A stretch of DNA of 63,999 nt, the filler included, from Basidiobolus ranarum (taxonomy: Eukaryota): assembly GCA_040143965.1 (NCBI GenBank). It is 22 parts of 22 records of this genome, joined end to end, with 100 filler letters (N's around TTAATTAATTAA, not from the genome) between each part and the next. Parts side by side here need not be neighbours in the genome. Positions count along the whole stretch, not along the records: positions 2,931 to 5,759 come from JASJQH010009816.1; positions 5,860 to 8,688 come from JASJQH010009817.1; positions 8,789 to 11,616 come from JASJQH010009818.1; positions 11,717 to 14,543 come from JASJQH010009819.1; 18 more parts are not named here. One strand, 5' to 3'. Below, piece after piece: positions 2,931 to 61,248 of this stretch. How positions within the stretch are numbered: the first letter of the stretch is position 1; every line of letters begins with the position of its first letter. A program made the translations under genes and the position numbers. The notes beneath the pieces are model-generated. The model had not been told where the DNA came from. It saw nothing but the letters and a program-made list of their open reading frames with translations, and ran no database searches.

Positions 2931-3087
2931 TTTCCATACGCTTTGTATGGCCACAGAACCATCCTCCACATAGGTCATGTAAGTCTCGTTTATCTACTGT
3001 TGATGCCGTGTAGCCTTGTCCCATAGGTAGACTTTGAGCAGTCAAGGTAAACAGAGTAATGGCGACGTATAAGCTGGTGAACTTCAT
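2931..3087 (-). CDS. Secreted Kex2-processed repeat peptide precursor, paralog A (3' truncated by contig end)
   Basis: MKFTSLYVAITLFTLTAQS-LPMGQGYTASTVDKR-DLHDLCGGWFCGHT-KR-ME...: signal peptide and dibasic-flanked core. Confidence 0.9.
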
Positions 3088-3180
3088 TATTGCAGTGGAA
3101 AGATAGTCAAGTTTGTTGTAGTGTCGATGATATAGAAGAAGTGACGAGATCTGAGGATGTATGTTCTGTTTGTTGGCTAC

Positions 3181-3260
3181 TTATACGTTTTAGTGATTTT
3201 CTGAGAATGTATAGTAAGCGTTAGAGCGATCATTAATTCTGAGTACCTATTTTCCTAGAA
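3181..3260 (-). promoter_or_regulatory. Paralog A promoter: TATA box (~3181) and TTCCTAGAA motif (3252-3260)
   Basis: Same two-element arrangement upstream of every family member. Confidence 0.6.
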
Positions 3261-3764
3261 CACTTCGTGATTCATATGGATTACATTGCAACTTAGTACA
3301 TTTAAACCAGATTAAAACCTGATTATGTTAAGACATTTATCGGTTGGTGGATAGTTCAATGTTCACGCGTAGGATCTCACCTCTACACGGTAGATATGAG
3401 CAGGAATGTATCTGACAATATTCAAATATTTGGTCAGTTTGTGCTTTGTTGGATATTAAACCGGGATACTAGTACTTTTCTGTGCGCGATTGTAATTCGA
3501 CAAGCTTGCAACTTTAGCTTGTCATAGATATTTTTTGAACAATCCCAAAGCAGTTCAATATGATTTGAAGACAAAAGCAGCAACAGTATTCTTCCATAAG
3601 TAATGTAATAATATATTTAATTACATACAGACGCCTCCAGCACTGATAGCGGTTACATTATTAAATTTCAGTTATGTGACAAAAAAGGATTTAAATTTTC
3701 TACTATAATAGCTTGGTTAAGAACATGGTACAAGGCGACTGACTCCAGGTCAGTGTAGCTATGG

Positions 3765-3896
3765 CTATAGTACTAGTTGAATTGTAGAGCAATCTCTTTT
3801 GTCTCCTGCATCAACTTTGAAACCCTGCTCCACTGGTAAACTTTGTACGGCCAGAGTAAGAGCAGTAGAAACGGTAAATAAGCCGATGAGCCTCAT
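3765..3896 (-). pseudogene. Core-less paralog D of the peptide precursor family (43 aa)
   Basis: MRLIGLFTVSTALTLAVQSLPVEQGFKVDAGDKRDCSTIQLVL*: homologous signal and pro region up to DKRD, then the core is missing; family TATA at 3931-3940 and motif at 4007-4016 and 4135-4143. Confidence 0.8.
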
Positions 3897-4474
3897 TAAA
3901 GTATTTGAAGATTAGCATCCAGGCACCTAACTACTTATATGGTTTGGTGGCCCATAACTTAGCTACATAGCATATCACAGGTGAATATTTGATTCTGAGC
4001 CGTATCAACCTAGAATATTATGTTATACAATTCTGAAGAATATTTCGATGGCGTCAAAAGATATATCTCAAACCTTTTGTCATTTGACTGCTTATTTGAC
4101 TTAGTGAGTATCACTGGGAATAAGATATGTGGGATTCCTAGAATATTATGATATAAATCGATATTTCTGATTACTTTAGGATAAAACAAGTTGACCGAGA
4201 TTACTCCATCCAGATGGTATTTCCATTTGCTATGATCTTGAGATTTTCAACTAGAAACAAAGTAGAAATATTACAAGTAACATCAGATAATTTATTAAGT
4301 ACTGGAATTATTTGAGAGTCAAAAAAAACTATTCAAAATTGACTACAACAAGGGACAAAATGGCAAGAAATAACGGACAGTGAAATAACGATTAGTTAAT
4401 AGGTCTTGTTCACATAACTTCCCAACAATAGGCTAGTTTTTGTGAAAGTATTGTGGTGTATTATGGTGTAGAGT

Positions 4475-4861
4475 TTAACTGCTAGAATGATGGGTAATTT
4501 CTTTCATGCTGGATCTCAGATAGGTACGATGAAAGGCACTTCTTTTCCTAGTATGTCCGCAGAACCATCTACCGCATAAGTCATGTAGATCTCTCTTGTC
4601 GCTTGTGGTGGGTGATTGTTCACGTACTATTTGCTTTTCAATTCTAGTAAGAAGTTTTGGGTCAGTGTTAGTAGTTGGTGATTCGACTGGGCTCTCTGGA
4701 GTTATTTCATCACGTTTCGTATGGCCACAGAACCATCTGCCGCACAGGTCATGTAGATCTCTCTTGTCTCCTGCCAATTCTGCGGTGCCTTGACCCATAG
4801 GTAGACTTTGAGCAGCCATAGTGAAGACAGAAGACGCAACTAACATGGTAGCGAATCTCAT
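4475..4861 (-). CDS. Secreted Kex2-processed repeat peptide precursor, paralog B (128 aa, two cores)
   Basis: MRFATMLVASSVFTMAAQS-LP...DKR-DLHDLCGRWFCGHT-KR-spacer-DKR-DLHDLCGRWFCGHT-RKR-21-aa tail; ATG at 4861 chosen by homology. Confidence 0.93.
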   Translation of the reverse strand: MRFATMLVASSVFTMAAQSLPMGQGTAELAGDKRDLHDLCGRWFCGHTKRDEITPESPVESPTTNTDPKLLTRIEKQIVREQSPTTSDKRDLHDLCGRWFCGHTRKRSAFHRTYLRSSMKEITHHSSS

Positions 4862-4936
4862 GACGATATTGAAAGATGCTTGAGGTTGATATGATAACAG
4901 CACTATCCGATAAATCTTACACTGTCACCTAGCTAC

Positions 4937-5015
4937 TTATATAGTTTAGCGATCTTTTCTCTTATGTTGGAGGCAAAAATCAGGTTCATGTTGCGGAGTT
5001 GATTGATTCCCAGAA
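4937..5015 (-). promoter_or_regulatory. Paralog B promoter: TATA (4937-4943) and TTCCCAGAA motif (5007-5015)
   Basis: Spacing of about 70 bp, as in paralogs A, D and F. Confidence 0.6.
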
Positions 5016-5595
5016 CGCGTATCAGGTGACACACATTGGCGTAATATGAATTAAAGTATTCTGCCTGCTATATTTCTTTACCAAAGTTGTAATATTAAAC
5101 TTAATTGAAAATCATTCATGTACGCTGACTTATGGTTTTCATCTTCCCGTATTGGAACACGCTTCTGAATGCTAATCCCAGTTTCAAAATTGTGCTGTTT
5201 GCCAAGCAACATATTAGAATGAGATTCTCTACCCTCATTACTTTTATATGATATTGAAGCAGCATAGCCCAAGAAAATTCAAGCAAGTGACAAATGTCTG
5301 CTTAGTTTATAGCAATAAGAAATTTATTACATTATTCAATTGAACACAAAAAAAGAGTTCGAAAATAATTCAGTTTGATTGACACCAAGGCAAGAAACAG
5401 AGGACTCCGGGTCAGTGAATAAAATACTCGAAACTATTACGATATGGTTAATATCAAGACAAAAAATAACTGACTTTAGGTCGGGGAAGGATTGAGTACA
5501 GGTCATGTGCATGCTTAAATATCCAACAAAAACCGGTGATAGGGCTGCTAACTAAAAATTATATTAAATAAAACTCTAGCTCTGTTGTGCTGAGT

Positions 5596-5759
5596 TTAAT
5601 TGCTGAAAGAAGCTGCACTTTTGCTTATTGAAGACCGGAGGTGATCTCTTAAGGAAACACTTCGTTTCTTAGTGTGCCCACAGAACCACCTACCACACAA
5701 GTCATGTAGATCTCGCTTGTCACCGACGGTAGGTGGTTGTGTATGCACTGTTTCCTCCA
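5596..5759 (-). CDS. Peptide precursor paralog C, 3' half (5' end off contig)
   Basis: ...EETVHTQPPTVGDKR-DLHDLCGRWFCGHT-KKR-SVSLRDHLRSSISKSAASFSN*; not in the ORF track. Confidence 0.9.
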
Positions 5760-5877
5760 NNNNNNNNNNNNNNNNNNNNNNNNNNNNNNNNNNNNNNNNN
5801 NNNTTAATTAATTAANNNNNNNNNNNNNNNNNNNNNNNNNNNNNNNNNNNNNNNNNNNNTCTAAATGGACATTCCTC

Positions 5878-6729
5878 ATGGATCCAAAAGCAACTACTAG
5901 CTTTCCTATCACCACCCTAGAGGCTATATTTGAGAAATACTGTGGCTCATATACTCCAATACCTACCAGAAAGCAGCTAGTCAATTTGTTTTGTTACTAC
6001 AAAAACTATTGTCCAATCAGATTTCAGTGCACTATTAATGGTAGCAAAAGTGGGAGAAGCTTCCTTACCAGGCTTCAAGTAAGTGGGAATTATCTAGCTT
6101 CTGTGATGAAAGATGTTGATCATGCCTGGGACAAAAGATTTAGAGACTCTAATTTCCTTCCATTTCCTGGAGTATTTCCCAAAAGAGTTCATATCAGAAG
6201 TATTCTTGACACATATCAAGTAAGAATTAACAGGCCCAAAAGCAACCAAAAGCTATTCTATTCTGGCAAGTACAAAGCCCACTGTGTAAAGTTCCAGGCT
6301 TTGACAGATTTGGAAGGAAACATCATTTGGTTTAGTGGGCCACATCCAGGGAGACACCATGACAAAAGGCTTTGGGTTGAGAGGCATGCACCATTTGTAA
6401 GATATGAGAAGACTATGGCTGATTTGGCATATGTTGGGGAAGAATGCAGAAGGCTAGGATGTGTCACTGCTAACAAGAGGCCCAGAGGAGGGATACTCAC
6501 AGAGAGGCAAAAGCTTTATAATGACATTTTTTCCCATTTTAGAGCAAGAGTAGAACATAGCTTTGGTTTCCTAAAGAGATATAGCATTGTAGCAGGAAAG
6601 TATAGAGGAAAATCATTTTGTGGGCCTCAATCAAAGTTAGGCAAAGTAGTCAAAATCTTGATTAATTCTCAATACATCCATACTCAAAGATATCCATTGA
6701 GAGCTCTAGACTTAAGACACTATGAATAA
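5878..6729 (+). mobile_element. PIF/Harbinger-ISL2EU/IS5-like DDE transposase (DDE_Tnp_4-type), uninterrupted ORF
   Basis: Motifs ILDT...RINRP, FYSGKYKAHCVKFQ, GPHPGRHHD, MADLAY, RARVEHSFGFLK; frame open to the contig start. Confidence 0.85.
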
Positions 6730-7049
6730 AGCTTTCATTATCTTTTGAATGTGCAATAATGTCTAAAAGTACTTTTCTTAAACATACCACATAAGTAAAA
6801 TAAACTGTTTCCAAAATGGTAAATAACATCGTGCCGGATAGTGCCCAATCATGCCAATTTGTGCTGGCACACTTTTTAGCTGGCCTGATCTGGCTCAATA
6901 AAATGGAACAAGTCTATAGGTAAAAATTATGAAATTCCTATTCAGGCCATGACAAGCAATAATGCCAGAATATTACAATTAATGTAGCATTTGGAAGCAA
7001 CAAGTCAACAGTTAGAGAGGAACTCAACAATGATACAAGGCCTATTAAC

Positions 7050-7770
7050 AAGCCAGGCAACCTTCCAAGATCTCTGGTTTAATCAACTCTATCAAAAAAT
7101 TGGATCTATTTCATTCAGATTTGTGTAGACCTATGCAAAATTCATTTTTAGGTGAAAAAATATATGCAATCAGATTTATTGATGATTTTACAAGATATAT
7201 TTGAGTCTACTATATGAAAAGAAAATATGCAGGACTCTCAATTTTAAGGGATTTGAAAACACTTGTGAAGACTGAAACAGGAACTAAAATTATGAAAACA
7301 TACGCTGATGATGGAGGAGAATGTACTTCAACATTATTTAAGTACTTTTGTAAAATTGATGGAATTGAGCAAGAAACTACAGCCCCCTATTCCGCTCAAC
7401 AAAGTGGAGTTGCTGAAAGTGCTAACAGTACTATATTAGAAATGGCAAGATCTATGATAAATGCACATAATTTATCTCATAATCTTTGGGCAAAATCTGT
7501 TGCTAAAGCTTTATATCCAAGGAATAGCAGTTCTAGTAGAAGTCTGTCTAACCCTAGACCATATGAAGCTTGGTTTGGAGTTAAACATGATGCAAAGCAT
7601 TTAAGGGTCTTTGGATGTATTGCTTATGTTAAGGTTATGGCCAAAGATTGGTCTATATTGGATCCAAAAAGTAAGAAATGCATATTTCTGGGTTAATGTA
7701 CTCAAACTAAGGCCTACAGACTCCATGTCACCTAAATTTGCTACTTAAAAAGTCTGGGGATATGATGTTA
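7050..7770 (+). mobile_element. Ty1/copia integrase relic
   Basis: DDGGE, TAPYSAQQSGVAE, HLRVFGCIAY, DPKSKKCIFLG motifs with stops. Confidence 0.85.
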
Positions 7771-8199
7771 ATGAAATTGAAAAATATTCACCCAAAATGA
7801 CTGCACATTGTGAGGATAATTGATATCTGCCTAATCCAATCATTCAACCTATTTCAAAATCAAATGAGTTAAGAAAATAGCATACTTGTAGACCCTTCAA
7901 CTAAACTTTTGCTTACTGAAGTGCCTAATTCAATGCCATATATTATAGTACCTCTGTCCTAAGCCAGGAGATAAAATCAGATCCTAACAGATATGAGGAT
8001 TATTATTATAGGAAATGCATCACAATTTTAATCCATTTTAGATTGTCTGTTTACTGGACTTGTTCCATTGTGCCAGGATTTATTGGACCTTAAATCTATA
8101 CATTAGAGTAAATTGAACTGAAATTGATCATGCCAGAGAGTGCTGGATAGTGTCAAAATAAGCCACATAAATTTTAGAATACTTTGTCCAATTTGAAAT

Positions 8200-8688
8200 A
8201 CATAGCTTAAATTGGCACTATCATGGAGAACAAGTACACTTACCAGCATAAAATCTTCAAGTTATATTTGATTTTAATCCTTTTTTTCAGTTTCAGGAGT
8301 GAAATTTCAAGATCTCACAAAATAGTTGCACATGATTGGCTACAATCTCAGTGAAATAAGGATCAATGCATGTGCAAAAAATGTAACTCAAGTTTTACAT
8401 TTTTACCACTTGAATGAGAGTTTGTCAACTTCAATATCCCTAGTTTTTTGATACAATCTCCTGAATATTCTTATCAAGCACTTTGTAGTCAAGGTTTAGC
8501 TTATGCTCAACACAAGTTTGTAGCAATATCTCCCTCAAAGCCCACCATTGTGTTAACATTGCTGAATCATCATTCTTCCAGCTATCTGGTGGATACCCTG
8601 CAATATGGTGCCACTCTGTATTAAGTTCTTCCCAGATATCTGCAGAGTCAACACCAGACTGAATATCTAGTTAAATGTTCTTCTACTT
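8200..8688. repeat. Dispersed TE-derived repeat (also at about 22260-22730 and inverted at 26342-26500)
   Basis: Shared blocks such as gtgaaatttcaagatct...aaatagttgca and gctatctggtggataccctg. Confidence 0.7.
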
Positions 8689-8788
8689 NNNNNNNNNNNN
8701 NNNNNNNNNNNNNNNNNNNNNNNNNNNNNNNNTTAATTAATTAANNNNNNNNNNNNNNNNNNNNNNNNNNNNNNNNNNNNNNNNNNNN

Positions 8789-11616
8789 TAATACTAATCA
8801 GGCAAAAATCTTTTCAAAATTCCATTGGAATATATGCAAATCCATTACTTCCAGTCTTTGCATTTGAGTAAACACCTAGATGAGTGGATATTGATGGGAG
8901 TCCTAATAAGATATGATGGTATCTTGATGTTTTTAAGCATTTTCCCAATTGATTCAAACTTCAATCCTATCTCAAATGGCTCATTCATATTGAATTTTCC
9001 ACTATATAGCTGAGTGAGTAGTGTTGGTATGCTGTTGAATAGTAAGTGCATAATACCTAATGGGAAGCTCTTGCTCCAGCTGATCCCCTTTAGCAAAATA
9101 ATCTTAGGCTTGAGGCTGATACCAAGTTTGATGTTAGACTGACTATTTAGTGAGCTGATATCAGTGATTGTGTTGGAATCTGACTGGGCTCTTGATGGAA
9201 AAATCATGGAGTTTAGTTTTGTATTTGGATAGTTGTAATGAATATGCCTCATAGAGGAAACTCCATGGATTTGACAAAATCTACAGCAAGATAGCGCATT
9301 TTGCCTGCAAAAACCTCCACATTTACTGATGGAAGGAGTGTCAACAATACATACAATGATATTATCTTTAAAAAAATACTCACCCATCTGAACCCTATTA
9401 GATAACCATTCAAATTCCACAATCAAAGGCTCCAAAAAGCTGTCTATAAGCACTGATAATTTAGGTCAAGATACAATGGATAGTATCAAAATGTTATGAC
9501 TCTTGTACCATTTAGAAGGACGAACGTTTAAGTTAATTAAAATTCTTGGCCAGCAAGCCTTTCCAATGGTATATTTCTTTAGCAAGAAACCATCCAGAGC
9601 TAATGCAAATGCATGATCATATGTGTTCTCAAAGAACCCATGCCTTTTGAGATTCTGGTAATGATATCTACCAAGTATATTGGTAATTCCATCAGCTTTA
9701 TGGTAAGTACTTTGGTATTGAATCAATGATTTATGTTTTGTTGATTTCATCAATACTTCAAAGGATTAAAATGCAGCAATAATTGCTAACAGTTCCTTGT
9801 TATAGATGTGATAGTTGATTTCTGCTGCCAAGAACTTTCTTGAGTGTTAAGACAACAGTGTGCAGTTGGTTATCATCACCTCCTAGCAAAAATAAAATTA
9901 ATTGGATCCCAGTGGGATCCACCTTTCTGGATTGCAACACCATCAGAGAACTATCACAATATATTTAGCTTACATTCTGCCAGAGATTTTGATGGTATTT
10001 ATACATGTAAAAATAAAGATCCTTTTCTTTGGCATGCAATATATGATTTCTGTCAGTATTTGCAAAAATCTAATACTTGAATGCCAAATTACTGGGTTTA
10101 CTGCAGTAGGAATTCAAATTAATATGCCTGCCTTGATTTAGATATTTTAGGCTTTGTATTCCTTCCATAATAATAATCATAAAATACAAGAATCTTGTTG
10201 TATTTAGTCTCTACATTTGCACATACTTGACTGATCAGACATAACTCAGCACATGAATATGCTTTACCAGCAAACTAATGGTGAAAAAATTGCTATACAT
10301 CTGAAATTTTCAATAGCACAGACACTTTCAAATGGCTGACTCTTGTTACCATTTACAATGGGAATGAGCTCTTTGATTTTGGCAAATTTTGGTAAAGAAT
10401 TTAGCCAAAATATCTCTGACTTACAGTCAACATATGTCCTGCCACAAGTAGATTTGTCATTGCTTGAATAGATTACCCCATGGCTAAAACAATAATACTG
10501 TATATCTTGATCTATCTCACCAGGAAGTGTGTATTGCAGCTTTCCTAGAAATACTGTCAGATTATAACTAAAGCAAATTAGTCCAAATTACAGAGGTACT
10601 TACTCAGTATCCATGGATTGGGTTTTTTTGCTTTAATTGTGCTCAAATAATGCAAAAACCCATGAAGACATTGAAAAAAGCCCTTTGGTGGAAGATTAAT
10701 ATACTCTGGAGTCTCCTTAACCCATTGCATTACATCCATCACCCTGACAAAAATAAAATCAACTTGATCTAGATTGGATCCACCCTCCAAAAGAGCAAAA
10801 CCATCAGAGAACCATCACAATATTGGTGGCTTGCATTCTGCCAGGGATTTTGATGGTATAATGGTGGCTTCTTGACAGTATTTTGATGGTATTCATACAT
10901 GTTTAAACATTGAACCTCAAAATTGGCGTGTTATTCAATATCTGGCAATTTCTGCAAAAATATAATTTTTGAATGGCAAATTACTGGGTTTAATGTTATA
11001 GGAATTTGAATCAATATGAATGCCTTTATTAAGTTATTTTAGGCTTTGTGTTCCAGTGATAATGAGAATTAAAAAATACAAGAATTTTGTTGTGTTTAGT
11101 CCCCATATATGCACATACTTCACTGACTACACATAACTCAACAAAATCAATATGCTTTACCAGCAAACTAATGGTGGAAAAATTGCTAAACATCTGATAT
11201 TTTGAATAGCACTGACACTTGGCAAAGAGCTGACTCTTGTTACCATTCACAATGAAAATAAGCTCTTGGATTTTGGCAAATTTCCATAAAGAATTCAGCC
11301 AATATATACCTATCTTGCCATCAACAAATTTCCTGCCACAAGTAGATGTGCCATTGCTTGAATAGATCACCCCATGGCTAAAACAATAATAATACATATC
11401 TTGATCAGTCTCACCAAGAAGTCTGCCATGCAGCTTTCCTAAAAATACCATCAGATTATTACACAAACAAATTAGTCCAAATCAAAGAGGTACTTACTCA
11501 GTGTCCATTGATTGGGCTTTGTTGCTGTTATTGTGCTCAGACAAGGCAAAAACACATGAGCACATTGAAACGAGCCCTTTGTTGGAAGGTCCATACTCTC
11601 TGGAGTCTCCTGAACC
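8789..11616 (-). mobile_element. Decayed CACTA/En-Spm-like (Transposase_21-type) element fragments, with a gypsy RNase H scrap near 9760-9850
   Basis: FALALDGF, CWPxILINLN, HNILILSI, DSFLEPLIVEF motifs; downstream part present twice; HSRKFLAAEINY-type RNase H piece. Confidence 0.75.
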
Positions 11617-11730
11617 NNNNNNNNNNNNNNNNNNNNNNNNNNNNNNNNNNNNNNNNNNNNTTAATTAATTAANNNNNNNNNNNNNNNNNNNNNNNNNNNN
11701 NNNNNNNNNNNNNNNNATATCTAATCTCCT

Positions 11731-11809
11731 TTATAGTATAGCTATCATTCCGTGAAGGTGATGAAAGCAACTAGATGATTTGTGTTTCTCACTTGGTTGA
11801 TTCCTAGAA
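11731..11809 (-). promoter_or_regulatory. Orphan family promoter (TATA ~11731 and TTCCTAGAA 11801-11809) for a paralog beyond the contig's left end
   Basis: Same motifs and about 70-bp spacing as in the precursor promoters, with no ORF left on the contig. Confidence 0.55.
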
Positions 11810-12377
11810 TACAAATTTGGTGGCACCACAGAACAGGTAACTCTACAAAATCAATTGTAATCTGCTAATCCAAGTTATTGACCATACAACTATCTTCACT
11901 ATTTGACATGTTCTAATCAACACGCGCTTAGGATCGAAATGGTATAGTGAATATAAGTATGAGAGACGACAGTTCAAGTCAAATTGCCAAATACTAAGGT
12001 ATTACACTTCGCATACTTTGCTCAAGGTTGAACATGATCTTTGTTGAGGAATGATATAAGGTCATAGAAGAGTCAGAGTATAGTAGTATTTGCTATAGTT
12101 TTAGCAGATATAGCCTTAAGGTTTACTTACAATATATCGTTAAATCAATTAGTTTCCAACAAAATACATCTATATGAAGCAAGTACCAAATGATCTCTTG
12201 ATGTACAACATACTGGTATTTATTATATTAATAAACTGGATACGAAAGGAAAAAGTTCAAAATTATGTCAGTTTGGTTAGTGAAAAAGTATCAAAAAGCT
12301 AACTCCGATTTGTGGAAGATTGCTAGTGCATTAATGGTGATGATGATACGTTTGGGTATTACTTTGAAGTACTGAAA

Positions 12378-12764
12378 TCAACTACTGAAATGATCTATAT
12401 TCATTTTTATTGAGGATCGGAGATGATTGCGTAGGGTAATGCTTCGTTTCTTTGTATGCCCACACATCCATCTTCCACACAAGTCGTGTAGATCTCGTTT
12501 GTCACTGATGGTTGGTGATTGCTCATTAATTGCTTGCTCATCAACTTTAGTAGGAGTAGTTTGCCTTGAGACACTAATTAGAGTTTCACTTTGGCCTACA
12601 AAAGAGATTTCCGCACGCCTGGTGTGACCACAGAACCACCTGCCACATAAGTCACGAAGGTCTCTTTTATCTTCCGTTGCAACCTTGAGATCTAGATCCA
12701 AAGGTAGACCTTGTATTGTTGAAGTGAGAACAGTAGACAGTAAAAATATACCGGTCAATTTCAT
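12378..12764 (-). CDS. Secreted Kex2-processed repeat peptide precursor, paralog E (128 aa)
   Basis: MKLTGIFLLSTVLTSTIQG-LP...DKR-DLRDLCGRWFCGHT-RR...DKR-DLHDLCGRWMCGHT-KKR-tail; TATA 12831-12840; motif at 12884-12892 and 13023-13031. Confidence 0.93.
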   Translation of the reverse strand: MKLTGIFLLSTVLTSTIQGLPLDLDLKVATEDKRDLRDLCGRWFCGHTRRAEISFVGQSETLISVSRQTTPTKVDEQAINEQSPTISDKRDLHDLCGRWMCGHTKKRSITLRNHLRSSIKMNIDHFSS

Positions 12765-13420
12765 AGTTGTATCAGAAATAGAATTAGTCGATAGAACAGT
12801 TTGAATAACACCATCTCCTCATTCATTCATTTTTATAGTTCAATGGCCAAGGCACTGACAAGTTGTATGAAGAAGTTGGTTTATTCCTAGAATGGTAGGT
12901 TATACAACTAATCTGAATGTCACTAACTCTACTAAATATTTCAATAATCATGAGAAGCTCTTTTGTTAAATGTTTCTTGAGAAAAAATACGATGAGACAG
13001 TGTCATTGATTCAGTTGCTTGATTCCTAGAATATCCAGTGATACAAAGTGATATCTCTGACCATTTTAAGATAAAGCAGGTTCACTTTGAAAATGTCCCG
13101 GTTGCTCTATCCAGATATATTGTCGATTATCATGATATGCATAGAACTCAGAAATACTAGTGATATTTTGGATTTGTTCTGGCTAGAGATCACTAGATTA
13201 AGACCAATGAACGAAAATTAAGGAGAAAAGATCAAAATTTATTTTAATAACTTGTTTGTTGACAAAAATGTTGGTAACAGCTGATACCAGGGGCGTGGAA
13301 ATATGCTTGCTGTACTGCTTACTGAGATATAGCCTTATTCCCAAAAGACTAGAAAGGTAATAGTAGGTAGCAGGCTGCTTTATGGTGTAATGCTTAACTG
13401 TTGAAATTGTTGACAGGTTC

Positions 13421-13774
13421 TTATTTTGAGAATCTGAGATTGCTACGGAGAGTAACACTTCTTTTTCTGGTATGTCCGCAGAACCATCTGCCACACAGGT
13501 CATGTAGATCCCGCTTGTTACTTGTGGCGGTAAGCGATTGCTCAATGACCGTTCTCTTTTCAACCTTAGTTTGTTCCGAATCGACGATTGGGGATTCATC
13601 TGTACCCACTATAGAGGCTTCTTCACGTTTGGTATGACCACAGAACCACCTGCCACATAAATCATGCAAATCCCTCTTGTCTCCAGCTAGTAATTTGGTA
13701 TCCTGACCAAAAGGTAGGCTTTGAGCAGTCATAGTAAGGATAGTAAAGATGATGGCTAAAGATGCAAATTTCAT
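13421..13774 (-). CDS. Secreted Kex2-processed repeat peptide precursor, paralog F (117 aa)
   Basis: MKFASLAIIFTILTMTAQS-LP...DKR-DLHDLCGRWFCGHT-KR...NKR-DLHDLCGRWFCGHT-RKR-tail; ATG 13774; TATA 13851-13860; TTCGCAGAA 13923-13931. Confidence 0.93.
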   Translation of the reverse strand: MKFASLAIIFTILTMTAQSLPFGQDTKLLAGDKRDLHDLCGRWFCGHTKREEASIVGTDESPIVDSEQTKVEKRTVIEQSLTATSNKRDLHDLCGRWFCGHTRKRSVTLRSNLRFSK

Positions 13775-14643
13775 GGTTTTTGTTGAAAGATAATTGAGTT
13801 TGCTATTGTAGCAGAGTAATGTTATGTATTTCATCCCGTCGTTTGACTGCTTATATAGTTTGATCATCATATCTCCAATGCAAGAGTGGTGAGAAGTTAG
13901 TTCTTCGTTCTCAGTAGCTTCATTCGCAGAATATAAGCTAGGTAACACGAGCTGAAAATAGATAAATCAGGTTGCCTTCCTCACAACACGCCGATCTTAA
14001 TATGTCATTCTGTAAGATAGAGACAAGATGGAAAGATGGGATTTTTATTGGCCGAGGGAATGGGTGATGTCAATTGAAGATCAAATAGCCAAATGCTTCA
14101 TGTACTCAAGATACAGTATACTAAAATCTGCCTACAATTGAGTGAATTTTCTGGTGGTATCAAGAGGATCTCAGAAAGCAGACAACTATCATTTCATTTC
14201 TTACCGGATATCGGTTCAAGCGATAAATCCACTGTTGTATATTTGAGTTTAGAGACGCGATATATTTTATTACTAGCTCGATATTTCACGCTCATGGTAG
14301 ATGAGTATACTGTTAACGGGCTGTATTTTTATTAGGACTAGATAGCTTATTACGTAGATTAATTATTCAGAAGTTAAGATAGTAAGCATAGATTACACTA
14401 CAACAGATTTGTTGACAAAATGGTAAGAGATGACTGACTCTTGGAACGCGAAAAATCATTTGGCGCGTATTAGCTAAAGTGTAAGGAAAATCCACAGGAC
14501 TAACCTCAAAAACAAAGTTAACCATAGATAAAAGCTTAGACAANNNNNNNNNNNNNNNNNNNNNNNNNNNNNNNNNNNNNNNNNNNNTTAATTAATTAAN
14601 NNNNNNNNNNNNNNNNNNNNNNNNNNNNNNNNNNNNNNNNNNN

Positions 14644-17469
14644 GGAGCTCTATTTAGACTATATTTCAGCTACACCATCAGCAAAATTGGAAGATGTACT
14701 CTATGTACCAAATACAGCCAAGAATATACACTCAGAAAGTCAAGCAACAACTCAAAGACTAAAGGTTGCATTCAACAAGGTTGGATGCACTAGCATAGAT
14801 CAGAATAATACCAAATTAGCCATGGCAATCAAAACTCAAACTCATACAAGCTAGAAGTCAACAAGTTGCATTTGAGCATGCAAACATGGCCAAAACCAGT
14901 CAGAAAAGCTGTTAAACATGGCATGGAAGATTAGGTCACATTGGAGAATGTAAACTGACACAAATGATCTGAAATCAGCTTGTTTTGGGCTGAGATATTG
15001 ATAATATCACTAAATTGGATATGTGTGAAGGTTGCATATTTGGAAAGTGTCACAAAAAGCCATTTTAAGCTGTGGAGAGATTAAATGCACTCAGAATTTT
15101 GCACTGGTGCCTTCTGACCTTGGTAGCCCCATGAAAAATTTCTCACTTGGTGGCAAAAGGTACTTTATGATATGTATCAATGAAAAAACAAGATACACCT
15201 GGGTATTCTTTCTCCAATCAGAATCTGAAGCCTTAGCTACACCTAAGCACTACAAAGCAATGGTAGACAAAGAATCAGCACAAAAAACAATGGTACTATG
15301 GAGTGATAATGGTGGAGAACACTGCTCTAAAGACATAGCTAGGTTCTTTTCTAAAAATGGAATTGAGCAATAGGAGCACCATGGTGGAGATGGCAAGATC
15401 AATGTTACATGATCAAAAGTTAGATTACCAAGATTGAGCTGAAACTGTCTCCACTGCAATTCATGTCAAGACCAGCTGCCAAACCAGATTCCTACCACAT
15501 TCGACTCCATTTGAACCACTGTACGGATCAAAACCAAGTGTGAATCATTGCAGGATCTTTGATTGCACAGCATCTTGCCTGATTCCAGCTCAAAAATCCT
15601 CTAAAATGGAAATCAAAAACAGATAATGCATTTATCTTGTTTACTTTGATGGATCCAAGGCCTACAGATCTGTTTAATTCCAAAAATCAAAAGTTAAATA
15701 AGTGGAGACGTGATTTTTGATGAAAAAGCAAACTGGCTTGATCCAGAGAACACAATCAGCACTATTCAGGAAGTGTCTGATGGAAATCCAGCTGTACCTG
15801 AGTGCTATTCAACTACAATTCCAGCACAATTAAAATTGAAGAATGACTGAGGACCCTAAAGATGATCCAGATGGAGGAATCAGCCTGGAAACTGGTAGAA
15901 CACTTTCATTGAAATTTTCTATGCTTATGCAGCATTCAGTGATAGGCCACAGACTTTAGATCAAGCTCTGGAGTGTCCAGAATCAAATTATTTGAAACAG
16001 CAATGGATGATGAGTTATCTTCACTTCTGGGCAATGAAATGTGGGTTTGAAGTCCTCTGCCAGCAGGGTGAAAGCAAATAGGTTGCAAATGGGTTGACAA
16101 AGTCAAGAAGCAAGCTGATGGAACTATAGAAAGGTACACAGCAAAATTAGTTGTAAAAGGTTATTCCTTAACTCCCAGAGTTGATCTCAATGAAACTTTT
16201 GCTCCTGTAGCTAAGTTTAGCTCTGTTAGATCAAACCTTGCACTCTTGGCCTTGAATAACCTTGATCTACATCTAATGCATGCTAAAACAGCTTTTCCAA
16301 ATGGAAATCTAAAAGAAAAAATACATATGAACCAACCAGATGGATTATTTGTCCCAAACACCCCTGATATGGTCTGTAAACAGCAAAAAATGCACTAATG
16401 ACTAAAGCAAGCACCTGGGGCTTGGTACAACAAGATAGATACCTATTTGCAATTACTGGAATTTCAAAAATGCACAGCAGATCACAGTATTTATGTCATA
16501 ACAACCCAAAATAGGATTCTTATTTTGGAACAATATTTGGATGACTTGATCATAGCCACAAATGATATAGAGCCACTTATTCTGACAAAAAAGCTTATCA
16601 AACCAATTTCTGACAACTGATACAGGAAATTTGGTTCTTTTCTTGGATTCCAAATTGAACAGAGATAAACTCAATCAGAAAATCCGACTGATTAAGTCTA
16701 GATACATCTTAGACACTTTAAAGTGCCTCAACATGGAGAATTGTAAGCCTGTATCAGCTCCAATGGGTCCCAATATGAAATTGATCTAAATTGTATTAAA
16801 TTTGGTCAAAGTTACTCAAACCAAATCCAAGACTTCCTTTAAAAGATCCTGGTGGTTGGTTACTATACACAATGGTTGGAACATGTCCAGACATTGCTGT
16901 GACCATGGGAATTGTCAACCAATATCTCAAAAATCTAGGGTCCAACCACTGAGAAGCAACAAAAGGGGCAAGATGGTTTGAAAAACTTTTAACAGATTAA
17001 TGTTATTCTCAAAGCTAATTGATACAATATTCCAAGACAATGTAAGGTGTAAAAAATTAGCTAGAAATCCAATGTTTCATAATAGAAGCAATGATATAGT
17101 TATTAGACATCACACAATTAGAGCAACTATAAAGAATGAGTTTGCAGACTTAACTAATAGTGCCATGAAAGACATGATAGCAGATATATCAACATGGCCA
17201 TTTGTTGAAATTAGGTAGATAGCAACTCATTATTTATTAGTTAGCTTATGCTATTCTGATTTTTTAGCACTAAATTCTGCCATTCATAAATGTGTGTTTA
17301 TTGTAATACATAGAAATATCAATTTTGTCACTTTTACCAATTTTCTCTATTTTCTCAAACCTCTCTAAATCACCTCAAATTTTCACCCAAGCTTAACAGG
17401 CATGACAGTTATGACCTAAGCATGTCCAATAGATCTATTTCATATTAAACTAGGAATAGTACATATTCA
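14644..17469 (+). mobile_element. Decayed Ty1/copia element (integrase, RT, RNase H) with 3' LTR from about 17203
   Basis: SDNGGE, ETFAPVAK, NPMFHNRS motifs with many stops; TGTTGAAA LTR start. Confidence 0.88.
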
Positions 17470-58436: not shown

Positions 58437-61248
58437 ATTAGAGGAATTGTTGGTTTTCACTTGTTGATTTATTGAGTAGAGAGTTAACTATGATAGTTTT
58501 GTCAAGACATAAACAAACTAATATGTAAAAAGTGTTACAAAAGGACCTACAAGCATGTGTTCAGAGTTTAGGGCTTCTAGCACAAGTTTGAAAAATCTAT
58601 ATATCTGTGAGCTCCTAAGTTGGTAAATATATTAAAAGAAAATTCCAATTGAGAATAATGGATTATGTCTTAGTGAAATATAAGATGAATAAGTACTAAG
58701 CTATATATGACTATATAGGTGCCTAGGCAATGCTACTTTCAACACTCTCCCTTAACAAAACAGTCATGTAAACTAATCCTAATAAAGATCTAAATTTCCC
58801 TAATTTCTGTATAGCTAATGGTTTGTTTAATATATCAGCAACCATGTCTTTTATACAGCATGTTGAAACTAACATTGCCCAAGCACCTATATAGTCATTT
58901 ATAGCTTAGTACTTAGTTATTTTAAAACACACCAAGATATTATCCATTATTCTCAAATGGAATTTATTTTGAATATTTTTACCAACTTAGTTCTCAGAAA
59001 TATAAATTTTTCAAACTGGTGCTAGAAACCCTAAACACTGCACACATGATCTTAGGACCCTCCTTAACATATTCTACATGTAAGCTTGCCTACATCTTGA
59101 CAAAGCTATGAATGTCAACTTTCTACTCAAGAGATCAACAAGTCAAACCATCAATTCCTCTAATTCTCCAAACCACCTCCAACAGGCTCCTAAATACTTT
59201 AACAGATTATGAGCCCCAAGCTTGCACTGTCTGTAGTGCCTACTTCTCAAATTCATGGAACTTCTCACTCTTCTGAAAAATTGGATGGAATCAATCATCA
59301 AGTTTGGAAAATGAAAATGAAAATGGAGCTGCAAGAAAAAGAAATTTGGGAAACTGTTATCAGAGAAGAAAACAATATAAAACTATCTGAAATCAAAGTT
59401 TTACTCCAGGCTAAAAAGAACAAAGGGCCTTTAACACAATTTGTCTTAATGTTAAAGACAAATTGCTAATTCAATGTTCCAAAACTAAAACTCTCAAGAA
59501 GGTATGGAAAGCCTTGGAAGACAACTACCAAACAAGTTCTGCTGCTAAAATGATATTTCTAAGAAGACAATTCTTTAACTTAAAGATAAAGCCAGGAGAT
59601 GACATTAATCACTATATAGTAGAGTCACTATTTTAGTGAATGAACTAGAGTGCATTGGAGTACCTACTACAGATCAGATATCATAGTTACAGTCCTGAAT
59701 AGCCTGCCACACAAGTTTCAGAGCCTAGTAATGGCTCCACAATCAAAAATTGAAAATTAGGCCTTACATTTTGTATTTGGCAGACCTCTGGATGAAGATT
59801 TAAATAAATCTGGATCCACCCAAAAAAATGAACAAAATGCTTTAGTAGGCTATAGGAAACCTTTCTATAAAGGTCAAAAGCACTTTAAGAACAAAAGTAA
59901 CACAATCTGTGACTACAATAAAAGAACTGGCCATTTAAGCACAGATTGCTTCAAAAGAATTGTAAAAGAAGAAAAAAACCGAATCTGGAAATGTGGTTAC
60001 AATAGAAGATCACTTGCTCATATTAGCTCTATATATGACTACCAACAAGGATTCTCAGACATGGTACATTGATTCTTGAGCCTCCCAACATTTCACAAAT
60101 GAAAAGCAGTGGTTTGTGGATTATGAAGTAATCCCAATTAGAAAGGTTTTCATGAGAGATGACCACACATTGGATGCTATTGGAATGAGAGCAATTCAAG
60201 TCAATTTAGCTGGAGCTTCTGAAGAGAAAATATATACTTTTAAGGATGTACTACATGTTCCAGATATTGCCAAGAATTTAATATCTGTATGCAAGGCCAC
60301 CTCAGAAGGGCTAAAATTCAATTTTGATAAGCCAAGATGCATCATCACTGATCAAATTAGGAACTATTTAGCTTTGGGAGAAAAGGATCAGAACACATAA
60401 AAGATCACATATAATCCAAGTGGCTTATGTGTAAATCTAAGGAACTCCAATCAAGAAACTATTAAATTATGGTGTAAGATATTTGGTCCCATTGAATTTG
60501 ATTAATTTAGCAAAATGATCAAAAATTGCTTAATTTCAGGATTTCAAATTAACCCCCCAAACAAAATGGAAATTTGTGAGGTTTGCATATATGGAAAACA
60601 AGACAGGCAACCATTCAAGAGCTCTGGTTTAAGCAAATCTATCAAAAGATTGGATCTAATTCATACAAATATGTGCAGACCTATGCAAAATTCATCTTTA
60701 GGTGGTAAAAGATATTTGATCACATTTATTGATGGTTATAAACAATACATTTGTGTCTACTTTATTGAAAGAAAAGAAGAAGTACTCTCTATCTTTGAAG
60801 ATTTTAAAACACTGGTGGAGACTGAAACTGGAACTAAAATGAAAAAAATACACACTGATAATGGTGGAGAATATACTTTAACATTATTTAAGCACTTTTG
60901 CATGTTGCAGATCAACACCTCAGAAATAAGAATTTGGAAAAAGAATCTGAGGAAGTGGCTCTTTTTGGAGCTGAAAAACATAGCTTTGGCAAGTTCAAAG
61001 GTTACAGAAGAAGGAAACCAGTGTTATGCTATAGTTGTAACAAACCAGGACTGTTGAAGTTTATTGTCCTTATCATATTTGTTATCTCTATCTTTATACA
61101 CCTAACTATTTCATATAACACATATAAGTTAGTTAATATTACTTAGTCAAATATCACTTAACTGAAAATTGGAACATATATTATATATATATGTGAATAA
61201 TGTGAGAATTAGCAATTCCATATTGGAAATTTCAAACTTGTCCAGATT
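58437..61248 (+). mobile_element. Copia relics: inverted LTR 58437-58744; LTR 58861-59204, PBS, gag and integrase; further LTR from 61052
   Basis: TGTTGAAA...TTTAACA LTR, PBS GATTATGAGCCC, CEVCIYGKQ, TDNGGEY. Confidence 0.85.

Follow-up and report, generated by a model that had tools for sequence, protein, structure and literature searches.

Tandem genes of Basidiobolus ranarum most likely belong to a genus-restricted family of Kex2-processed repeat proteins with a conserved 14-residue core

Two short contigs in a 63,999-base stretch of DNA from the fungus Basidiobolus ranarum (assembly GCA_040143965.1; the whole analysed stretch is called the window here) carry head-to-tail arrays of small genes built around a 14-residue segment, the core, whose usual sequence is DLHDLCGRWFCGHT. 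A six-frame motif scan for this sequence found eight intact cores and no more, every one of them on the minus strand; a preliminary description of this DNA had given the same number. The genes are confined to the second and fifth pieces of the window (2931-5759 and 11717-14543), which carry array members only. Along the minus strand, piece 2 holds the 3′ half of gene C, then B, the pseudogene D and the 5′ half of A; piece 5 holds F and E. Gene starts are spaced 809-1010 nt apart. The features of the arrays are as follows.

2932..3087, minus strand: gene A, 5′ part (signal, pro-segment, KR, core A, KRME), cut by the contig end at 2931
2944-2985, minus strand: core A, R8G (AGA to GGA)
3765..3896, minus strand: pseudogene D, signal and pro-segment intact as far as GDKRD
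4475..4861, minus strand: gene B, complete, 128 aa plus stop, cores B1 and B2
4550-4591, minus strand: core B2, unvaried protein
4718-4759, minus strand: core B1, unvaried protein
4937..4943, minus strand: TATA-like box of gene B, 82 nt upstream of the ATG
5596..5757, minus strand: gene C, 3′ part (spacer end, KR, core, KKR, tail, stop), 5′ part lost at the contig end, 5759
5671-5712, minus strand: core C, unvaried protein
12378..12764, minus strand: gene E, complete, 128 aa plus stop, cores E1 (then RR) and E2
12453-12494, minus strand: core E2, F10M (TTC to ATG)
12621-12662, minus strand: core E1, H3R (CAT to CGT)
13421..13774, minus strand: gene F, complete, 117 aa plus stop, cores F1 and F2
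13469-13510, minus strand: core F2, unvaried protein
13631-13672, minus strand: core F1, unvaried protein

The codon table bears out what had been said of the cores. B1, B2, C, F1 and F2 encode the same protein, the other three differ from it by one residue each, and the residues reported as invariant (D1, L2, D4, L5, C6, G7, W9, C11, G12, H13 and T14) are so in all eight. All four synonymous codons are used for Gly12 (GGC, GGA, GGG and GGT, twice each) and for Thr14 (ACA twice, ACG once, ACT twice, ACC three times).

The two truncated genes match proteins from elsewhere in the species. From MGQGY on, 41 residues of gene A are identical to the start of the B. ranarum protein P0020, which continues to a second core, and the first 36 residues of gene C (to ...KKRSVSL) are the C-terminus of P0014, a partial two-core protein. 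Gene E is the most divergent copy, with RR in place of KR after its first core and the most divergent signal peptide, and may be under relaxed constraint. Pseudogene D is the sole copy in which the core has been destroyed. The pseudogene reaches downstream to about position 3500 (minus strand), and its coding region is decaying: the first core carries a 5-nt alignment gap and in-frame stops, the second-core region is unrecognisable, and tblastn matches it only to query residues 1-35 (E = 2e-5). The promoter motifs can still be made out, as can the signal and pro-segment. Intact in these parts and decayed in the cores, D provides a neutral control within the arrays for the copies that remain intact. 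A tblastn search of the whole window with precursor B found no further copies, the remaining seven matches all having E above 3. A possible relic core at 11988-12077 (plus strand, E = 3.1) was rejected as a chance match after its reading frames were inspected.

Upstream regions were compared for five genes, A and D included (ATGs at 3087, 3896, 4861, 12764 and 13774, minus strand). The TATA-like box of gene B has equivalents at -73 (E) and -83 (F) relative to the ATG, and in the alignment a block AAAC(T/C/G)(A/T)TA(T/A)AAG is common to all five regions. A second common motif, TTCT(A/G)(G/C)G(A/T)A, is TTCTAGGAA-like and lies 120-175 nt upstream. The remaining intergenic DNA has only ~50-57% identical columns, little better than unalignable sequence. 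The shared motifs suggest that the array copies are under common regulation.

To measure selection, A, B, C, E and F were aligned by codon, and Nei-Gojobori counts were pooled over every available pair of genes. The proportions of non-synonymous (pN) and synonymous (pS) sites that differ are given by region.

Core 1: pN 0.039, pS 0.878
Core 2: pN 0.029, pS 0.742
All 28 core pairs: pN 0.032, pS 0.870
Signal: pN 0.333, pS 0.542
Pro-segment: pN 0.367, pS 0.552
Spacer: pN 0.353, pS 0.535
Tail: pN 0.343, pS 0.758

It had been stated beforehand that a core dN/dS no lower than that of the spacer would refute the claim; the core lies clearly below the spacer (pN 0.032 against 0.353). The ratio of the two rates (omega) is ~0.5 in signal, pro-segment and spacer, while that of the core can only be bounded, at a few percent or less, because its synonymous sites are saturated; silent sites had earlier been described as highly diverged. 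The KR ahead of each core has undergone no non-synonymous change among the window copies. Fisher tests on the three complete genes, comparing non-synonymous to synonymous differences in the cores with those in the rest of the gene, gave 3:16 against 84:36 for B-E (p = 1e-5), 0:14 against 58:32 for B-F (p = 3e-6) and 4:10 against 59:35 for E-F (p = 0.02). The preliminary description also had the spacers diverging freely. This is true of most of their length, but the last residues before each KR are conserved (e.g. ...EQxxTxSDKR).

Between any two cores there are 4-12 differences in 42 nt, so the copies are not assembly duplicates, as had been stated. Nor does DNA homogenisation account for them. 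The distance between core 1 and core 2 inside one gene is 6, 12 and 8 nt (mean 8.7), which is no smaller than the mean of 7.8-8.4 between genes, so gene conversion is not the cause of the protein identity. The saturated synonymous sites and the barely alignable intergenic DNA support the view that the copies are old. The contrast between a core pN of ~0.03 and one of ~0.35 elsewhere, the KR kept before all 46 cores of the wider family described below, and the decay of D support the core with its dibasic flanks as the selected unit, in line with the earlier claim that the core is the functional part and under purifying selection. The family is a clean textbook case of protein-level conservation in a tandem array without homogenisation of the DNA.

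The precursors, ~117-128 aa long, share one layout: putative signal, pro-segment, KR, core, KR, spacer, KR, core, (K/R)KR, tail. The pro-segment of ~12 residues and the poorly conserved spacer of ~38 residues both end in D-K-R. Residues 3-18, which follow a Lys or Arg at position 2, have a grand average of hydropathy (GRAVY) of 1.3-1.7, against -0.2 to -1.05 for the rest of the protein; from this and from inspection we infer a signal-like N-terminal segment and secretion. An AlphaFold2 model of precursor B with the family alignment has a mean pLDDT (predicted local distance difference test) of 50.9, with cores and spacer below 50 and a helix at 2-18, and the lack of a modelled fold fits a precursor rather than a domain protein. 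The start of the tail, (K/R)KR-S-[VI]-x-L-R-[DN]-x-L-R-S, is fairly conserved family-wide (e.g. 4478-4540, minus strand) and is modelled as a helix (pLDDT ~68); it might represent either a signal of the pro-region or an additional product.

This layout is that of the Kex2-processed repeat proteins (KEPs), whose definition and processing by KEX2, KEX1 and STE13 are set out in Le Marquer et al. 2019 (PMC6339444) and Umemura 2020 (PMC7329392). KEPs combine a signal with repeated short cores between KR or RR sites, and genus-restricted sequence types are the rule among them, as for the Basidiobolus family. They are defined by at least four fragments upon cleavage; in-silico cutting at KR/RR divides B and E into five (exactly pro-segment, core, spacer, core and tail) and F into six. 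The near-identical motifs repeated between dibasic sites are here the two cores of each complete gene. Basidiobolus precursors differ from other KEPs in having only two cores, copy number coming instead from many tandem genes. With its 43 KEPs, B. meristosporus was reported as richer in them than any other of 1461 fungal assemblies (PMC7329392). The sole Basidiobolus type described in the available text of that survey, S-3, is Tyr/Asp-rich and hence a different family; the core string is absent from its supplement files, which give accessions rather than sequences, and Basidiobolus is unmentioned in the available part of PMC6339444. Judged by their sequences, the genes are most likely tandem paralogues of an undescribed, Basidiobolus-specific KEP family, which adds to a known class and does not found a new one. 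Peptides derived from KEPs occur widely among fungi, and very few have an assigned product or role.

Relatives were sought widely. A word-seeded search of 5.8 billion proteins with precursor F returned 21 proteins at E ≤ 0.01, the three from the window and 18 B. ranarum relatives annotated 'hypothetical protein K7432_...'. An exhaustive phmmer search with precursor B of 1.84 billion cluster representatives gave seven matches at E ≤ 0.001, three of them short proteins with a variant core. Another of the seven, the 3944-aa repetitive, coiled-coil-like protein P0022, was rejected as a compositional match to the spacer. The variant-core proteins are from B. meristosporus CBS 931.73, and a search with one of them added a two-core member, P0026. 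A profile built from all 24 sequences and run against the 5.8 billion proteins picked out 25 of 5782 candidates (18 from B. ranarum, four from B. meristosporus and the three of the window), with no member outside Basidiobolus. When JGI metagenome contigs were scanned, 342 pattern matches came up, and two loci (L001 and L002) were tblastn-positive. L001 is a bare LCGGWFCG in a 99-aa open reading frame (ORF) on a GC-rich contig, without KR sites or signal architecture; its ORF overlaps longer ORFs on the opposite strand, and it was rejected as a chance match. L002 has the same identity, matched residues and E-value as L001. On present data the family is confined to Basidiobolus. The two-core layout is shared by P0026 of B. 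meristosporus and so predates the split of the two species. Elsewhere in B. ranarum the genes also stand in dense arrays: contigs of 7.7 kb and 6.7 kb carry six and five of them, and one assembly holds at least 18 genes with 35 cores.

Core statistics were taken over 46 cores in 25 proteins. The exact DLHDLCGRWFCGHT occurs in 30 of them. Five positions (L2, C6, G7, G12 and H13) are invariant; D1, H3, W9 and C11 have one exception each, and D4 and F10 two each. At position 8, 35 cores have R, 10 have G and one has N; at position 5, 39 have L, six F and one I; at position 14, 41 have T, four V and one P. KR precedes every core, and a dibasic site follows 43 of them, in the form of KR and an acidic residue behind the first core and of KKR or RKR behind the second. 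In B. meristosporus four of the five cores read DLHDFCGGWFCGHV, a variant of its own. The R8G of gene A recurs in the independently assembled B. ranarum proteins P0019 and P0020, while H3R and F10M are found in gene E only. These A-type proteins form a subfamily with Gly8 in both full cores, and at the ends of the long C-terminal tails of P0019 and P0020 stands a third, truncated core-like motif (...DRFCGGWFC or ...DRFCEGWFC) that lacks both the KR ahead and the GHT behind.

Comparison with known families gave little. In a Pfam scan no family rose above its cut-off; the sub-threshold matches (DUF7586, zf-RING_13, Prok-RING_2 and RPAP2) are all located over the Cys/His core. A PDB sequence search with a 27-aa core segment gave nothing below E 0.37, and an ESM Atlas feature search gave nothing at 0.9 or above, its structure rows reaching template-modelling (TM) scores of 0.37 at most. 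String searches of the literature for the core and its pieces found no paper containing them, and searches for DUF7586 or PF24491 found no mention.

Were the precursor processed as its dibasic sites predict, it would enter the endoplasmic reticulum (ER), in the Golgi a Kex2-type convertase would cut behind every dibasic site and the trailing K/R would be trimmed by a Kex1-type carboxypeptidase, each precursor giving two secreted DLHDLCGRWFCGHT 14-mers. Such a processed, secreted 14-mer is probably the selected product. Its calculated mass is 1659.8 Da (reduced), its pI 5.98 and its charge -1.1 at pH 7; being near-neutral to anionic, it is not a classical cationic membrane-active peptide. A Cys6-Cys11 disulfide would most likely close a six-residue ring in the oxidising secretory pathway. 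Cleavage is read from the sequence, and the conserved segments might instead be repeats of a small secreted or cell-wall protein that is never cut. We regard this as very improbable, given that only the cores and their dibasic flanks are conserved, that the parts between change ~10x faster at non-synonymous sites, and that the AlphaFold2 model has no fold. The family supplies an exact, easily synthesised 14-residue candidate product under extreme constraint, 30 of 46 cores being identical despite saturated synonymous divergence.

The candidate 14-mer also offers a chemical prediction that is cheap to test, a disulfide ring joined to a copper and nickel site. The Kex2 cut would expose a free N-terminus, Asp-Leu-His, which is an amino-terminal Cu(II)- and Ni(II)-binding (ATCUN) site. 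ATCUN sites consist of a free N-terminal amine with His as the third residue and bind Cu(II) and Ni(II) with femtomolar affinity, and protease cleavage is a known route to them (PMC9599103). The sequence pattern, His3 with a residue other than Pro at position 2, is seen in the cores: His3 is present in seven of the eight in the window and in 45 of the 46 in the family, and Leu2 in all 46. If processing is as predicted, the 14-mer should chelate Cu(II) and Ni(II), and on chemical grounds its binding of copper in vitro would be almost certain. It would share the free N-terminus and His3 with known ATCUN peptides, and its Asp1 with the classical Asp-x-His examples. Such sites are found at the N-termini of serum albumin, the histatins and hepcidin, and hepcidin combines the site with a disulfide, as would hold for the 14-mer. 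Unlike the known peptides, the 14-mer is fungal, its site would be generated by Kex2, and the metal site is predicted.

As to role, we tentatively favour an extracellular Cu/Ni-binding peptide that might serve metal acquisition, buffering or copper-dependent antagonism in the gut; this reading ranks first, with self-signalling close behind. Basidiobolus lives as a symbiont in the gut of amphibians and reptiles and is occasionally a pathogen. Its metal-acquisition (siderophore) metabolism is expanded (PMC7466969). A bolder form of the idea, possible but rather doubtful, is that dozens of old copies mass-produce a Kex2-released, disulfide-stapled, Cu(II)/Ni(II)-chelating 14-mer, acting as a peptide 'metallophore' or a copper-armed antagonist in the vertebrate gut. 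No such role for KEP-derived peptides is described in the available parts of PMC6339444 and PMC7329392 or of the literature that joins ATCUN with Kex2, which concerns histatin only. Several points weigh against a metal-binding role. The ATCUN pattern could be coincidence, one of two His in 14 residues landing third about 1 time in 7. All 14 positions are constrained and not the N-terminal three only, which argues for a partner that reads the whole peptide, a receptor or an enzyme. The H3R of the otherwise intact gene E means that His3 is not absolutely required, or that E is drifting. Finally, yeast alpha-factor precursors are among the nearest ESM Atlas clusters (0.82, below the 0.9 bar), a weak lead to signalling.

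In the signalling view the 14-mer would be a pheromone- or autoinducer-like ligand for a Basidiobolus receptor, produced as ascomycetes produce alpha-factor and active in mating, zygospore formation or density-dependent development, which is possible without being the likelier case. Its precursor logic is that of the alpha-type pheromones, and the constraint, extending over all 14 residues, is consistent with a receptor that recognises the peptide along its full length. Among the alpha pheromones of filamentous ascomycetes, many are short peptides released by Kex2 that contain Trp and two conserved cysteines (PMC6339444), and ascomycete precursors likewise release peptides of 10-14 residues in several copies. 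A variant of its own in four of five B. meristosporus cores is as expected of species-specific signals; the MF_alpha precursor cluster in the ESM Atlas (0.82) is a lead only. The spacing of the cysteines, x4, is unlike that of the two-Cys types of Sordariomycetes and Dothideomycetes and of the examples in the available part of PMC6339444, no STE13-type X-Ala or X-Pro spacer follows the KR, and the phylum is Zoopagomycota. Proteins of the A-F type have no Pfam MF_alpha (PF04648) or MF_alpha_N (PF05436) match at E ≤ 0.1, and among the listed papers on Basidiobolus and pheromones the titles and abstract openings give neither a peptide pheromone nor a Ste2-type receptor for Basidiobolus. A dosage of at least 18 genes and 35 cores in one B. 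ranarum assembly would also be very high for a signal. The 14-mer might instead be an agent directed at other organisms in the amphibian or reptile gut: an antibacterial or antifungal peptide, an inhibitor of proteases, or one that mimics a peptide hormone of vertebrates or insects. The high gene dosage and the gut-associated lifestyle of Basidiobolus (PMC7466969, PMC12400927) speak for it. A Pfam bacteriocin family is carried by 19% of one nearby ESM Atlas cluster (0.81), again as a lead only. The Cys-x4-Cys ring is the same size as that of vasopressin/oxytocin and urotensin II, with a basic residue beside Trp-Phe, a resemblance only. An agent of this kind is unlikely all the same: the 14-mer is neither cationic nor amphipathic, it has no sequence relation to a solved or annotated peptide family in PDB or Pfam, and effectors in an arms race usually diversify whereas this core is frozen.

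Two other readings change the chemistry of the peptide, and we consider both improbable. In one, raised in the preliminary description as an H-x2-C-x4-C-x-H pattern, the reduced 14-mer would act as a mini zinc-knuckle, with His3, Cys6, Cys11 and His13 as tetrahedral ligands of Zn (or of Cu(I) or Ni). The ATCUN site that cleavage would expose is the more specific metal-binding feature. These four residues are kept in 45, 46, 45 and 46 of the 46 cores, a Gly follows each Cys, the gut is a reducing habitat, and the weak Pfam matches of RING type (E 0.005-0.03) and the best PDB match, a C2H2 zinc-finger chain, point the same way. The matches to zf-RING_13, Prok-RING_2 and DUF7586 are below their gathering cut-offs, however, and the E of 0.37 for the PDB chain is not significant. 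Positions that would not be ligands (L2, G7, W9, F10 and G12) are equally conserved, and the H3R variant loses a ligand. As a rule, Cys pairs in peptides that transit the ER become disulfides, and Cys2His2 sites are seldom found outside the cell. In the other reading the core is a precursor of a ribosomally synthesised peptide that is modified after translation (RiPP), with Trp/Cys cross-links or macrocyclisation by enzymes encoded elsewhere, as for the KEPs of ustiloxin, phomopsin and victorin. KEP architecture, with short conserved cores, is a hallmark of the ustiloxin-type (dikaritin) fungal precursors (PMC7329392). The core is strictly conserved and rich in reactive Cys, Trp and His. It has 14 residues and not the 4-6 of dikaritin cores, and none of the 46 cores contains Tyr, the residue that is cross-linked in known dikaritins. 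The two contigs carry array members only, although at 2.8 kb each they are too short to show a neighbouring enzyme. In the 2020 survey no DUF3328/UstYa partner is reported near any Zoopagomycota KEP, the count of those with a DUF3328 gene nearby being 0 of 185 (PMC7329392, Table 1).

The window itself is not one locus but 22 short contigs set end to end. It contains 42 runs of exactly 44 N, in 21 pairs, and every pair flanks the 12-mer TTAATTAATTAA, a linker with a stop in every frame. There are 21 such joins in total, among them the following.

2831-2930: artificial join, N44 + TTAATTAATTAA + N44
5760-5859: artificial join, N44 + TTAATTAATTAA + N44
8689-8788: artificial join, N44 + TTAATTAATTAA + N44
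11617-11716: artificial join, N44 + TTAATTAATTAA + N44

The pieces stand in falling order of size (2830, 2829, 2829, 2828, 2827, 2826 ... 2812 nt), the last being cut at the window end. In the protein database the proteins of the window stand on contigs of 2829 and 2827 nt, the lengths of pieces 2 and 5; the assembly is a fragmented one. The window being a chain of unrelated contigs, apparent gene distances across joins are meaningless. The cores had been assigned to a single span, 2944..13671. The start is right, the true end is 13672, one base further, and the span is not contiguous: it crosses three artificial joins, and 5860-11616 consists of unrelated contigs.

GC content is 31-40% over the whole window. 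Contigs other than the two with arrays carry transposon remains: a DDE_Tnp_4 transposase ORF at 5878-6729 (plus strand, Pfam E 4e-23), a retroelement integrase fragment at 7214-7696 (plus strand, SH3_retrovirus, Pfam E 3e-11), and ORFs at 15032-15373 and 60515-61057 (both plus strand) that look integrase-like by eye. A 63-nt tandem repeat at 2564-2830, the end of contig 1, has 4.2 copies with 88% matches and is open in several frames. One minus-strand frame encodes units of 21 aa that contain RR sites and abound in Tyr, Arg, Gly, Asp and Glu, and a plus-strand frame encodes His/Asp-rich units; the array is cut by the contig end. By analogy with the Tyr/Asp-rich S-3 type reported for Basidiobolus, it could be another repeat protein.

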